Below, piece after piece: positions 8,739-55,305 of a stretch of 64,000 nucleotides of DNA. Location: positions 1 to 64,000 of IMG/VR virus record IMGVR_UViG_3300007171_000061, one strand, 5' to 3'. The position numbers and the translations under genes were made by a program. The notes beneath the pieces were generated by a model, which did not search any database, was not told the origin of the DNA, and worked only from the letters and a program-made list of their open reading frames with translations. This DNA comes from a virus. Its lineage: Duplodnaviria > Caudoviricetes. Position 1 is the stretch's first letter. Each line of letters opens with the position of its first letter.

Positions 8739-9543
8739 GTTCTAGTTCCTTTCTGATGTTGTCAAACTTCATTGTATCACACAAATTGAAGATTTCAGGA
8801 TAATTATCTATCGCAAAATCTCTAAACCAACCACTGCACAATGTAGTGCATACTTTATCAAGTGCTTTTAAGTACGCATGTCGTGGTGCATAATTCCAGT
8901 TGCTTGGTACAAGAAAACGCTCAATTGCAATGACTTGTGCTTCTTCAGCTACGCATTTGATTTTATCATCTTTTGATAGCTTATCCCACAAATCTTTGTC
9001 ACACCATGCGCTACTTGCGTTGCGTTGAAGCTGAGTATACAACGGTTTGTCGTGATATGCAACAAGTTCGTGCAAATAATCATGATTGTATTTCTTCTCA
9101 ACGTAATCATCAAAGAACTCATCTACTGTTTTCTTCAAGCTAGGATGACCTTGTGGGTAAGCGGTCATAGTTAAAGCTGTGCGGTTTCGTAATACACGTT
9201 CATCAAACGCAGTAAATGCAGGACGATACCTTGCAAGATGCTTATGATAATGTGTAATGTGCTTTTGAAAGCTTAGATCACGCCACAGGTGACTGCGTTT
9301 GATAATCGCTAGTCCAATCGGATTAACGATGTATACACGTTGACCTGCAATCTCAATGAACTGCTCAGATGCATATCGTTCCATATCATAGTTACCTACC
9401 GTATTGAAATCATGCAATTCAATGCGCTTAGTTGCATCTTCAATTCCATGCAAACTAATAATGTCCCAATCAGTAGTAGGTTTGCACTTGAAGCTATCAC
9501 TCCAGTATTCCAATGCACGAGAACCAATCAGTAGGTTTTTCAT
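8725..9543 (-). CDS. Putative Pol-beta-superfamily nucleotidyltransferase-like phage protein
   Basis: N-terminal IGSRAL...DWDII (GS + DxD) motif; C-terminal FFDDYV...HDYLHE helical domain; strong TAAGGAG RBS. Confidence 0.6.
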   Translation of the reverse strand: MKNLLIGSRALEYWSDSFKCKPTTDWDIISLHGIEDATKRIELHDFNTVGNYDMERYASEQFIEIAGQRVYIVNPIGLAIIKRSHLWRDLSFQKHITHYHKHLARYRPAFTAFDERVLRNRTALTMTAYPQGHPSLKKTVDEFFDDYVEKKYNHDYLHELVAYHDKPLYTQLQRNASSAWCDKDLWDKLSKDDKIKCVAEEAQVIAIERFLVPSNWNYAPRHAYLKALDKVCTTLCSGWFRDFAIDNYPEIFNLCDTMKFDNIRKELEHGTN

Positions 9544-9554
9544 ATTACTCCTTA

Positions 9555-9673
9555 GTTATAGTTCAGTATATTCCGTATCTTAGTTCCTCGTCATGCTTTA
9601 GCTCACATGCGTCATAAAACCCAAATAGTAAACCCCGGACGTTTACCCAACCTGAAATATACTGAACTATAAC
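9555..9673 (-). ncRNA. Structured element closed by a perfect 18-bp inverted repeat
   Basis: gttatagttcagtatatt (9555-9572) is the reverse complement of aatatactgaactataac (9656-9673); internal GTAAAC/GTTTAC hairpin. Confidence 0.5.
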
Positions 9674-9676
9674 CTC

Positions 9677-9827
9677 TGGTCCCTAAACCAGCATTATAGT
9701 GTCTTGTTACACCCGGACGACAATCCTTGGGCCTTTGAAATCCGCAGTGTACCACGCCATCAGTACATCTGTTTTTAATGACGGGGCTTACACCCGCCTC
9801 GCTTGAAGTGTGCCGCTAACTCTAGGG
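9677..9827 (-). ncRNA. 151-nt tRNA-like RNA with acceptor stem and encoded CCA but non-tRNA body
   Basis: 5' CCCTAGA pairs with 3' TTTAGGG, followed by A-CCA; internal hairpins GGCGGG/CCCGTC, GTACTG/TGGTAC, GGTGT/ACACT. Confidence 0.5.
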
Positions 9828-9860
9828 ATATGAGCAACAGGCATAAGCGGGACTAAATTC

Positions 9861-9937
9861 TGGTGCGAGTGGAGGGATTCGAACCCCCGACCAATGGTGT
9901 AGAAGACCAGTGCTCTATCCAACTGAGCTACACTCGC
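9861..9937 (-). tRNA. tRNA-Arg(TCT)
   Basis: GCGAGTG/CACTCGC stem, TAGCTCAGTTGGATAGAGC D-arm, CT TCT AC loop, GGTTCGAATCC T-loop, CCA. Confidence 0.93.
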
Positions 9938-9946
9938 TTAACCTCA

Positions 9947-9976
9947 ATTATACATCAGTTTTCAACTCCAAGTCAA
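9947..9976 (-). promoter_or_regulatory. sigma70-type promoter driving tRNA-Arg, the ncRNAs and the NTase operon
   Basis: TTGACT-18-TATAAT on minus strand, about 10 nt upstream of the tRNA. Confidence 0.65.
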
Positions 9977-10496
9977 CATTTCGCAAAATATTTTCTTTGA
10001 TGTTTAACCTAGCCAGTTCGTTCAGATCAGATTGTGGCATAGACATGCTAGATCGTAGCATACCGTCTGCATCAAACTGCTGTAACGTCTGGTACTCTTT
10101 ATTATACTCGTATTTGTACTTCATGATCCACCTGCATCGTAATATTTCATCAAATAATTGTACACTGTTCTTGGTGCTACAGCAAAAATAACTTCAGGAG
10201 TATCATCGCAAAAAGCTTTGTTGGGTGATTTCCACCAGTTATCAACAAGTTTTTTACCAACTAGTGCAGTTAGCAAAGCATCACAGCGTTTGCGAAGCAT
10301 CTCAGATTCATTTGTCATAATTCCAACCTCCAACATCGTGTGTTTTAAACGTAGCTCTTGAAATGCTAATTACATGCTCAGGTAGAACTTTAGATGTACC
10401 AGCAAACCATTCATCTTCAAAGCAGCATTGCATCTGTGCTACATCGTGCTCATAAATTGCTTGGTATACCCACCAAGGTAGTGCTCCCCAACTCAT
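9948..10496 (-). CDS. Three small hypothetical ORFs (9948-10124, 10121-10336, 10308-10496)
   Basis: Overlapping stop/start junctions downstream of the DNA polymerase gene. Confidence 0.55.
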
Positions 10497-54082: not shown

Positions 54083-55305
54083 TGGCAACACAACGTAAAG
54101 CTAAAAGAAAACTGTCTGATATTAGTTTTGAAAAAGAAGGTGCTCATGTGGCTCTTACAAGTAAAAGTCAAGGTGGTCCCGCTAATACACACGACTATGC
54201 TTTGGTGCTAAAAAGCAACAAGTTCAGTGAAGAATTCGTAGAGAAAATGCAACAAGTTCGTGTCACTATGGAACTACCTGATTTCCTACGCAAGTTCTTT
54301 GGAATGTACGGTGATGAAGTTGAAATTCTAGCTCGCATGATGGGCTACGAGAAGCCTGAGTCTGAAGACTACTCTGAACCTATGGAAAGCTACGAAGATT
54401 ATATTCAATCTAAGATGGAAGCTTTTGAGATTCTAAAGTCTGCTCACGAAGCTGAAAGTCTAGCTGACGTATTATCTGCTCTAGATGAAACAGAATATTT
54501 AGCAATACTCAACGATCAACAGCGTGTGGAAAAAGCATTTGAAGAATTAGAAAAAGCTTACAAACCAAAAGAGGGTGACATGGTGCAATGGAACTCCAGT
54601 GGTGGTAAAGCTACTGGTAAAGTTACCAAGATTGTAAGCAACGGTTCAATGTCTGTTCCAGATACAAATTTTACTTTAAATGGTACAGAAGAGAATCCTG
54701 CTGTAATGATTAAATTATATAGAGATGGTGAACCTACCGATGTAATGGTTGGTCACAAAGCTGGTACTCTAAGCAAAGTACAAAAGTCTCTAACACAAGA
54801 ATCTGCACCTGCTGCTTCCGCAGACGGTAATGATACCTCAACAAACGCTGGCGTTGAGAATATTGAAGGGGTGTCTACCTCTGTTAACAAAGAAGAATTG
54901 GAGAAATCTAAGATGGAAGACGAAGTAAAAGTCGAAACCGTTGAGAAAGCTCAATTTGAACTTGTACAAAAAGCTCTAGATGAGCAAAAAGTACAACTAC
55001 AAAAAGCTCTTGAGACAATCGCTCAATTTGAAGCTGAGAAAAAAGAAGCTATCAATAAAGCGAAAACTGAAAAAGTTAAAGCTATCGTTAAAGACGAAAG
55101 CAAAGTAGAAGCAATCGCCAAGGCTGCTCTATCTCTAGAATCTGATGATGATTTCAATGCGTTCCTAGATGCTATGCAAGCTATGGTAACTACTGTTGAA
55201 ACATCTGAGATGTTCGTAGAAAAAGGTGCTTCAACTCAAGAAGAACCCGCTGTTAAAGAATCTGCTGTGGCAAAATTACTTAAAGCCAAGCAAGTAACTA
55301 AGTAA
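54082..55305 (+). CDS. Capsid scaffolding protein with inserted DUF2945/Tudor-like domain
   Basis: HVAL...GGPAN; KEGDMVQWNSSGGKATGKVTKI...VGHK; coiled-coil C-terminus. Confidence 0.7.
   Translation: MATQRKAKRKLSDISFEKEGAHVALTSKSQGGPANTHDYALVLKSNKFSEEFVEKMQQVRVTMELPDFLRKFFGMYGDEVEILARMMGYEKPESEDYSEPMESYEDYIQSKMEAFEILKSAHEAESLADVLSALDETEYLAILNDQQRVEKAFEELEKAYKPKEGDMVQWNSSGGKATGKVTKIVSNGSMSVPDTNFTLNGTEENPAVMIKLYRDGEPTDVMVGHKAGTLSKVQKSLTQESAPAASADGNDTSTNAGVENIEGVSTSVNKEELEKSKMEDEVKVETVEKAQFELVQKALDEQKVQLQKALETIAQFEAEKKEAINKAKTEKVKAIVKDESKVEAIAKAALSLESDDDFNAFLDAMQAMVTTVETSEMFVEKGASTQEEPAVKESAVAKLLKAKQVTK

Follow-up and report, generated by a model that had tools for sequence, protein, structure and literature searches.

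The window analysed here, 64,000 nucleotides (nt) of a virus of the Caudoviricetes (Duplodnaviria; positions 1 to 64,000 of the IMG/VR record IMGVR_UViG_3300007171_000061), carries on its minus strand, in this order, a promoter, a tRNA-Arg gene, an RNA domain, an 18-bp inverted repeat around 83 nt, a ribosome-binding site (RBS) and a protein gene; the RNA domain, of which the window holds one copy, is the subject of the present work. An earlier inspection of the sequence by itself (the original prediction) had flagged positions 9827-9677 as a 151-nt RNA with a tRNA acceptor stem, a discriminator and an encoded CCA end. Comparison with homologues indicates that the flagged stretch is only the interior of a conserved non-coding RNA domain of ~190 nt, and that this domain, from ~9854 to 9666 of the window, is the real unit, beginning about 27 nt further upstream and finishing at least 11 nt further downstream than had been supposed; judged by its sequences, the object is a genuine family of structured RNAs and not a tRNA mimic. 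The family is absent from Rfam 15.

Fold of the RNA domain

Homologues were collected from different sources: an exact 19-mer scan of IMG/VR yielded 16 stretches, the neighbouring protein led to 37 more loci, and two degenerate patterns fixing just the conserved 3' motifs added divergent members from phage contigs (≤98 kb) and metagenomes; the total set amounts to 87 distinct sequences, and family-wide scans were made by exact patterns. A covariance model built from 13 sequences recognised the element in 36 loci at E ≤ 5e-10. The fold was obtained from an alignment of 35 sequences (A3) by an all-against-all pair scan and pair counts; its architecture is that of a four-way junction (Pa; P0-H1; H3; H4), followed by hairpins H5 and HP, with two covarying pseudoknots (PK2 and PK3). 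The parts of the domain, and the long stem that overlaps its end, are the following:

9850-9854, minus strand: 5' strand of helix Pa, AGUCC, which pairs with GGAUU (9739-9743) and closes the four-way junction; 94.7% of cells paired (alignment A5)
9845-9849, minus strand: 5' strand of helix P0, CGCUU, which pairs with AAGCG (9800-9804); core CG/CG conserved
9811-9843, minus strand: hairpin H1, apical loop AUAUCCCUA (9823-9831) with CCCUA at the 3' end of the loop; from homologues
9780-9798, minus strand: hairpin H3, GGCGGG-UGUAAGC-CCCGUC, loop consensus UGNAARC (T-loop-like); pair switches
9745-9771, minus strand: hairpin H4, loop GGC (9756-9758) paired with GCC (9730-9732) to form PK2; covariation
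9715-9726, minus strand: hairpin H5, GGAU-UGUC-GUCC, loop UGUC (9719-9722) paired with GACA (9700-9703) to form PK3; covariation
9694-9699, minus strand: strand X1, CUAUAA, which pairs with strand Y, UUAUAG (9667-9672), and contains a TATAAT resembling a -10 box; pair switches
9676-9691, minus strand: hairpin HP, CUGGU-UUAGGG-ACCAG; 40 distinct stems among the 87 sequences
9555-9673, minus strand: Y:X2 stem of 18 bp, arms 9656-9673 and 9555-9572, around an 83-nt exchangeable module; inverted repeat

Folded by itself for minimum energy, the 151-nt stretch does no better than shuffled sequences (z = -0.92), so that a single sequence settles nothing; it is the comparison that carries the fold. 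In the 35-sequence alignment 97.6% of the cells are paired, as against 35-43% once the partners are displaced by one to three columns; changes on both sides are seen in 24 of the 41 pairs, and none of 500 shuffles reaches the paired or changed values. With Pa, P0 and H1 taken in, an alignment of 30 sequences shows a similar picture (96.9% paired; changes on both sides in 22 of 51 pairs; again 0 of 500 shuffles). The frequent G-U pairs, such as 33:49 and 136:141, fit the minus strand only, which fixes the strand of the RNA.

The support extends to the single helices. All eight stem pairs of H4 change on both sides, as do four of the five stem pairs of HP, for which variants such as CUGGU/ACCAG, CCUAU/AUAGG, GCAGU/ACUGC, CCGGU/ACCGG and CCACU/AGUGG are found around a loop that reads UUAGGG in 75 of the 87 sequences and GUAGGG in 9. 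The PK2 pairs 100:129 and 102:127 are formed in 35 of 35 sequences by three to four pair types, and in a divergent subgroup this pseudoknot reads GCUG/CAGC; in H5, 22 sequences have A-U at pair 135:142 and 13 have G-C, and at the PK3 pair 138:211 G-C is present in 33 sequences and C-G in the two whose pseudoknot reads UCUC/GAGA. H1 with CCCUA at the 3' end of its loop occurs in 85 of the 87 distinct sequences, in 37 stem/loop forms; its inner three pairs are paired in all cases, two of them covary, and its stem differs by lineage (CUC/GAG, GUUUC/GAAAC, AUAGUC/GACUAU, ACAGAC/GUCUGU, GUACAAUC/GAUUGUAC). Pa is replaced in other subgroups by GUCC/GGAC, GAGG(U)/(A)CCUC or AUGG/CCAU, as read from the sequences, and the extension of P0 covaries between classes (CUU/AAG, AUC/GAU, GUU/AAC, GU/AC). 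The hairpin that the original prediction had written as GCGGG-UGUAAGC-CCCGU is real and covaries among homologues: it is H3, whose pairs 34:48 and 35:47 switch between C-G/G-C and U-A/A-U, and whose loop fits the T-loop consensus U-G-N-R-A. H3 is absent or replaced in divergent subgroups, and is missing in sequences of the L096/L097 type. An outer helix involving G30 and G31 (CCCG with CG-a-GG) was considered and dropped, since in loci L041, L042 and L045 a compensating change preserves the H3 pair and since UCC pairs better with GGA as helix Pa.

The apparent acceptor stem

The letters that suggested a tRNA-like end are present on the minus strand of the window: CCCUAGA (9827-9821) is complementary to UUUAGGG (9687-9681, with one G-U), and A-CCA (9680-9677) comes next. 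Their place in the fold is a different one from that first assumed. Position 9827, taken as the 5' end of the RNA, lies inside the apical loop of H1, and position 9677, taken as its 3' end, inside the 3' strand of HP; the 'GA' counted into the acceptor stem is part of the H1 stem. The supposed discriminator and CCA are in truth the 3' strand of the covarying hairpin HP and change together with its partner strand; indeed, ACCA follows GGG in only 16 of the 87 distinct homologues, the others carrying AGUG, ACUG, AUAG, AAGG, ACCG, GCUG and more. Since CCCUA and UAGGG are found in hairpin loops and ACCA covaries with its partner in HP, the acceptor stem resolves into a candidate contact that bridges two apical loops, those of H1 and HP, instead of joining the ends of an RNA. 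The tRNA-like end thus appears, on comparison of the sequences, as an artefact of one subgroup, in which the 3' strand of HP happens to read ACCA.

The further extension of the stem by UUAGC/GCUGG was rejected, because it needs a G unique to the window, where the relatives have A, and because UUAGC is the 3' strand of H1. H3 does not serve as the T arm of a tRNA-like element either: no T arm abuts the supposed 3' strand of the acceptor, from which H3 is ~100 nt away. In a single sequence, then, two hairpin loops and a hairpin strand can give rise to the appearance of an acceptor stem with CCA, which only homologues expose as false; this is a caution for similar cases.

The complementarity left between the loops (here called PK1) comprises 5 bp, UAGGG of the HP loop with CCCUA of the H1 loop. 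The two pentamers are nearly invariant while their surroundings vary; this argues for a function, but by the same token yields no covariation. PK1 is probably a kissing-loop contact, which could form either within one molecule or between molecules.

The search for known families is in line with a structured non-coding RNA lying beside a tRNA gene and outside them, as had been proposed. In the window region 9400-10100, Rfam 15 (riboswitches, ribozymes, GOLLD, ROOL and others) gives at E ≤ 10 only the tRNA and chance-level matches, and in 14 related loci at E ≤ 0.1 only tRNAs; the expected lack of a canonical match held both at the gathering score and at E ≤ 10. ARAGORN and the Rfam tRNA model are silent on the element, which bears out the absence of a cloverleaf, and within the window region the latter matches 9864-9937 only. 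That no tmRNA is involved was also rightly anticipated: ARAGORN finds none in the window, and the permuted-tmRNA model reaches 14.1 bits against a cut-off of 47 bits, a score that stems from the T arm of the tRNA-Arg. The suggested likeness to phage stable RNAs stands in so far as the element recalls the stable RNAs of phage tRNA clusters; its other half, a likeness to Y RNAs, finds no match of the YrlA model (RF02553) in the window at E ≤ 10, and the sub-threshold YrlA match in locus L048 (30.1 bits against a 69-bit cut-off) overlaps the tRNA-Arg and not the element. Examined for the defining features of the tRNA, tmRNA and YrlA families, the RNA belongs to none of them: the supposed acceptor pairing joins two loops and not the termini, no single-stranded NCCA is conserved and no T arm is stacked on the supposed acceptor.

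Strand exchange and genomic surroundings

Strand Y, at the 3' end of the domain, has two partners. Besides pairing with X1, Y (GUUAUAGU...) begins the 5' arm of the long stem, and the 3' arm, X2 (...ACUAUAAC), is a repeat of X1. At the X1:Y pair 213:245, 26 sequences have C-G and 9 have G-C, and 217:241 switches as well; the three strands change jointly, as CUAUAA/UUAUAG/CUAUAA, GUAUA/UAUAC/GUAUA and CUAUG/CAUAG/CUAUG. That X1, Y and X2 change together means that both pairings of Y are under selection; being mutually exclusive over six bases, they must be used at different times or in different states. An exact Y:X2 stem (≥7 bp) is found in 71 of 84 sequences, with a median of 15 bp, and encloses modules of 11-199 nt which belong to at least five unrelated types and sometimes stand two in tandem (L005, L023). 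In the window the stem ends directly at the RBS of the next gene; among the 71 loci, an RBS with a start codon within 26 nt follows X2 in 36, in front of different genes, and the other followers are a tRNA-Met 2 nt away, different open reading frames (ORFs) or further RNA.

Two of the modules can be described further. That of the window (9555-9673, minus strand) is itself a conserved RNA, the inner hairpin of which covaries (GUAAAC/GUUUAC, GUAAGC/GCUUAC, ACAGUA/UACUGU). That of L047 and L050 (~1400-1490) has a T-arm-like GUCAG-UUCGAUU-CUGAC, followed by a short helix with a cap and by a D-arm-like hairpin, and looks, from these motifs, like a circularly permuted tRNA-like element mounted on the Y:X2 stem.

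Members of the family come from contigs of freshwater phages and metagenomes; a single cultured phage, Limnohabitans phage DC31 (PQ492658), has the element as well. DC31 is the nearest GenBank relative, with 89% identity over the region, and the only GenBank phage in which blastn finds an element of the window type; two divergent members, compared by blastn with the GenBank phages, gave no match. A strict pattern run over 185,579 species genomes returned 11 matches, all lacking the TAGGG loop and chance-like, a result that does not prove absence. A weak match of the covariance model R1 elsewhere in the window (54658-54810, 15.9 bits) was discarded as noise, as it lies in coding sequence and the motifs are missing.

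The features that flank the domain in the window are the following:

9947-9976, minus strand: sigma-70-like promoter, TTGACT-18-TATAAT; 11 of 12 consensus matches
9861-9937, minus strand: tRNA-Arg(UCU) with encoded CCA; ARAGORN, Rfam tRNA model 70.5 bits
8725-9543, minus strand (start codon at 9543): downstream gene, a DUF7275/DUF7277 protein of 272 amino acids; Pfam

The promoter is placed for a transcription start a few bases before the tRNA-Arg, the RNA domain starts 6 nt past the CCA of this tRNA on the same strand, and no terminator-like site is found in 9300-10400. In the relatives the element stands 32-250 nt after the tRNA, as against 6 nt here; a tRNA on the same strand lies within ~520 nt upstream in 60 of the 83 loci with enough flank, and is tRNA-Arg(UCU) in 46. 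Divergent members are embedded in arrays of 14-18 tRNA genes, some of which also hold a permuted tmRNA; they occupy the gap between tRNA-Tyr and tRNA-Ala or between tRNA-Ala and tRNA-Ile, with no DUF7275 gene adjoining. Conversely, in L032 (1413-1501) and L049 (1405-1501) the tRNA-Arg(UCU) abuts the DUF7275 gene with neither RNA domain nor module between them, so that the RNA block is an insertion or a deletion relative to these loci. Taken together, the arrays without DUF7275 and the two loci without the element make the tRNA neighbourhood, and not the downstream protein, the constant partner; by this comparison of loci the DUF7275 gene is context only.

The protein encoded by that gene has a GS...DxD motif and, in its confident AlphaFold2 model (mean pLDDT 87.7), resembles a MenT-like nucleotidyltransferase fold (MenT1, Z 8.2; TglT, Z 6.9; MenT4, Z 6.9); Foldseek gave MenT1 at no better than E 7e-3, and a wider structural search was needed to group it with the MenT-type enzymes. 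MenT1, TglT (MenT3) and MenT4 are nucleotidyltransferase toxins acting on the acceptor ends of tRNAs. The literature search found no paper mentioning DUF7275; a phage-borne MenT-like protein adjoining tRNA genes merits a study of its own.

Some observations concern the tRNA genes around the element. In DC31 (L001, 3160-3590) an HNH-like ORF (L001, 3223-3507) splits the tRNA-Arg gene behind base 10; beyond the ORF the 5' end is repeated and continues as an unusual tRNA-Arg-like sequence with acceptor stem, UCU anticodon arm, T arm and CCA, which lacks a D arm and is not called by ARAGORN. Between the tRNA-Arg and the element of other loci, the Rfam tRNA model matches sequences of 98-112 nt at 40-50 bits which ARAGORN does not call (L023, 928-1028; L027, 1061-1172; L037, 1142-1239; L038, 800-911; L042, 949-1046; L048, 1030-1128; L050, 1072-1170); these may be tRNAs with long inserts or tRNA-like RNAs. 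The larger phages with divergent members (L102, 860-1250; L106, 9072-9491; L115, 8607-8989) carry arrays of up to 18 tRNA genes, seven being called within the 3.2-kb stretch of L102, and a permuted tmRNA whose tag is ANDE(V/T)(Y/F)ALAA.

Possible roles of the RNA

The explanation that we favour, tentatively and at a little less than an even chance, is that of a processed, stable folded RNA. It would be co-transcribed with the tRNA-Arg from the promoter at 9976-9947 and released upstream by the 3'-end processing of the tRNA and downstream by an RNase III-like cut in the long Y:X2 duplex; what is left of Y, its 5' part, would then pair with X1 and close the mature domain, which would be a stable folded particle binding some protein, RNA or small molecule, similar to the stable RNAs of the T4 tRNA cluster or to the larger GOLLD and ROOL RNAs. 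Such an order of processing would account for the conservation of both pairings, for the admission of any downstream neighbour and for life in tRNA arrays, and the variability of what follows X2 (ORFs, tRNA-Met, other RNAs) fits a self-contained RNA better than the leader of a single gene; the promoter before the tRNA, with no terminator ahead of the ORF, supports the existence of a precursor. Several points weigh on the other side. The RNase III cut of Y:X2 is something that we purely infer, and the modules enclosed by this stem are themselves conserved, not mere spacers; X2 ends at an RBS in about half of the loci (36 of 71), which also fits cis-regulation; and in 23 of the 83 loci ARAGORN sees no tRNA within 520 nt upstream. 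PK1 is almost without covariation, the sole hints of compensation coming from two variant lineages (CCCCUA with UGGGG in L150, UCCCU with AGGGA in the L095 type), and for Pa, P0 and outer H1 the comparison between subgroups relied on inspection by eye and on constrained folding instead of one formal alignment. Finally, of six RNA libraries that hold small shares of the stretch, the four examined consist of contigs, which show neither ends nor transcription; one contig of 227 nt covers 9526-9728.

The main rival, possible rather than likely, is a cis-acting, riboswitch-like switch with the pseudoknotted domain as its sensor. In the folded state, reached through a ligand, a factor or co-transcriptional kinetics, X1 would hold the first 6 nt of Y and leave the last bases of X2 and the adjoining RBS (or the 5' end of the next tRNA) free, while in the unfolded state the full Y:X2 stem would form right up to the RBS or tRNA site. 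The competition of X1 and X2 for the same bases of Y, all three covarying, is the classic layout of an expression platform, and the compact, multi-pseudoknotted fold is aptamer-like; however, the downstream partners are heterogeneous (the nucleotidyltransferase, unrelated ORFs, tRNAs, a permuted tmRNA region) and point to no common ligand pathway. Likewise, a Shine-Dalgarno sequence and a start codon within the 26 nt after X2 are kept even where the gene is a different one (L044, L038, L096), X2 elsewhere precedes tRNA-Met by 2 nt, a U-run follows it in 5 of 71 loci and no terminator separates RNA and ORF, but the RBS itself is never within the stem, which moreover encloses conserved modules of 11-199 nt, unlike a terminator or a sequestering hairpin. 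Cobalamin riboswitches combine a regulatory kissing loop with a strand-exchange platform, and in both cases a sensor-like domain contacts through its loop a hairpin placed beside a helix that swaps partners, here X1:Y against Y:X2; the present RNA differs in having no Rfam riboswitch match, downstream genes without a theme and long conserved modules in the alternative stem. We regard it as improbable that the RNA is either a new class of sensor in phage tRNA operons, the folded state of which could gate whatever lies downstream through the X1/Y/X2 strand exchange, or a small GOLLD/ROOL-like multimer RNA, in which CCCUA and UAGGG could pair between molecules to form RNA-only dimers or rings.

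The remaining explanations have much less in their favour. A self-cleaving ribozyme that cuts the tRNA precursor, as the HDV-like theta ribozymes beside phage tRNAs do, is very unlikely: the compact pseudoknotted fold with invariant junction and loop bases and the place after the tRNA, at 6 nt in the window and at 32-250 nt in the relatives, would suit it, but many loci have no tRNA nearby, Rfam 15 offers no ribozyme match at E ≤ 10 and the layouts of HDV, twister, pistol and hatchet probably do not fit the topology, with its loop-loop contact and two loop-strand pseudoknots around a four-way junction. It is still harder to believe that there is no RNA domain at all and that a promoter with GACACTATAAT as -10 box and a 5' untranslated hairpin lie within drifting spacer. 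The perfect TATAAT at 9694-9699 and the highly conserved block AAGACACTATAAT could be read in this way; against it, the motif occurs once in the window, the promoter scan makes no call, no -35 box stands at a usable spacing (16-18 bp), and neither the hexamer spacing nor the conservation of A2 and T6 is that of a sigma-70 promoter, the variants TATTGA, TATGAA and TATAAA losing the key last T while keeping the pairing with Y. Covariation, furthermore, is found all along the 190 nt, also in pairs bridging the region to either side of the box. Least probable of all is the 151-nt tRNA-like RNA of the original prediction, a substrate for RNase P, CCA addition or charging, or a decoy for tRNA-directed defences. 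A tRNA gene upstream, the T-loop-like loop of H3 (UGNAA) and the adjoining gene for a MenT-like nucleotidyltransferase could be quoted for it together with the 7-bp complementarity and the ACCA; against it, H3 is missing in divergent members, CCCUA sits in a hairpin loop and not at a 5' end, no helix is stacked on the supposed acceptor as a T arm would be, the ACCA of 16 in 87 sequences covaries with its hairpin partner, and ARAGORN and the tRNA, tmRNA and YrlA models have no match. With the tRNA-like end lost on comparison, the sequence gives no support to RNase P recognition, aminoacylation or mimicry as a decoy.

The RNA has a close parallel in phage T4, whose tRNA cluster finishes, ahead of protein genes, with a tRNA-Arg followed immediately and in the same orientation by rnaD (species 2, 119 nt) and rnaC (species 1, 139 nt); the T4 record assigns them no function, and a literature search on species 1 RNA found no paper. 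The layout of tRNA-Arg, folded RNA and second RNA module is common to both, but homology was not detected, the R1 model giving no match over the T4 tRNA region at E ≤ 10; rnaC has a canonical T arm (CCGGG-UUCGAAU-CCCGG), which the present RNA lacks, and rnaD ends in ...CACC(A), whereas the ACCA found here is not conserved. GOLLD and ROOL are RNAs of phages and prophages, of unknown function and frequently located close to tRNA islands, and are rich in pseudoknots and kissing loops; some of their contacts first read as tertiary proved intermolecular, and many GOLLD RNAs exceed 800 nt (bioRxiv 10.1101/2024.12.08.627333). The present RNA is like them in being phage-borne, in lying beside tRNA genes and in having several pseudoknots and a loop-loop complementarity, which is conserved here. 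ROOL RNAs measure several hundred nt; with ~190 nt (~300 with the module) this RNA is several times smaller than either and has no Rfam match to them. With the tRNA-like RNAs (the tmRNA domain, YrlA, viral elements) it shares the adjacency to a tRNA gene, the T-loop-like loop of H3 and, in the window only, the 7-bp complementarity with ACCA; it differs from them in that the pairing joins loops, NCCA is not conserved, no T arm abuts and H3 is dispensable. A catalogue of 10,006 candidate viral structured RNAs (PMC10690425) may include the motif.

Phage tRNA clusters have long been known for extra stable RNAs, T4 species 1 and 2 and later GOLLD and ROOL. To these the present family adds a compact RNA, strongly supported by comparison, that combines a four-way junction with two covarying pseudoknots, a conserved loop-loop complementarity and a partner swap. 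Widespread in freshwater phages, the family can be brought to the bench through the cultured pair Limnohabitans phage DC31 and Limnohabitans sp. DCL3, and its size of ~190 nt suits structure determination.

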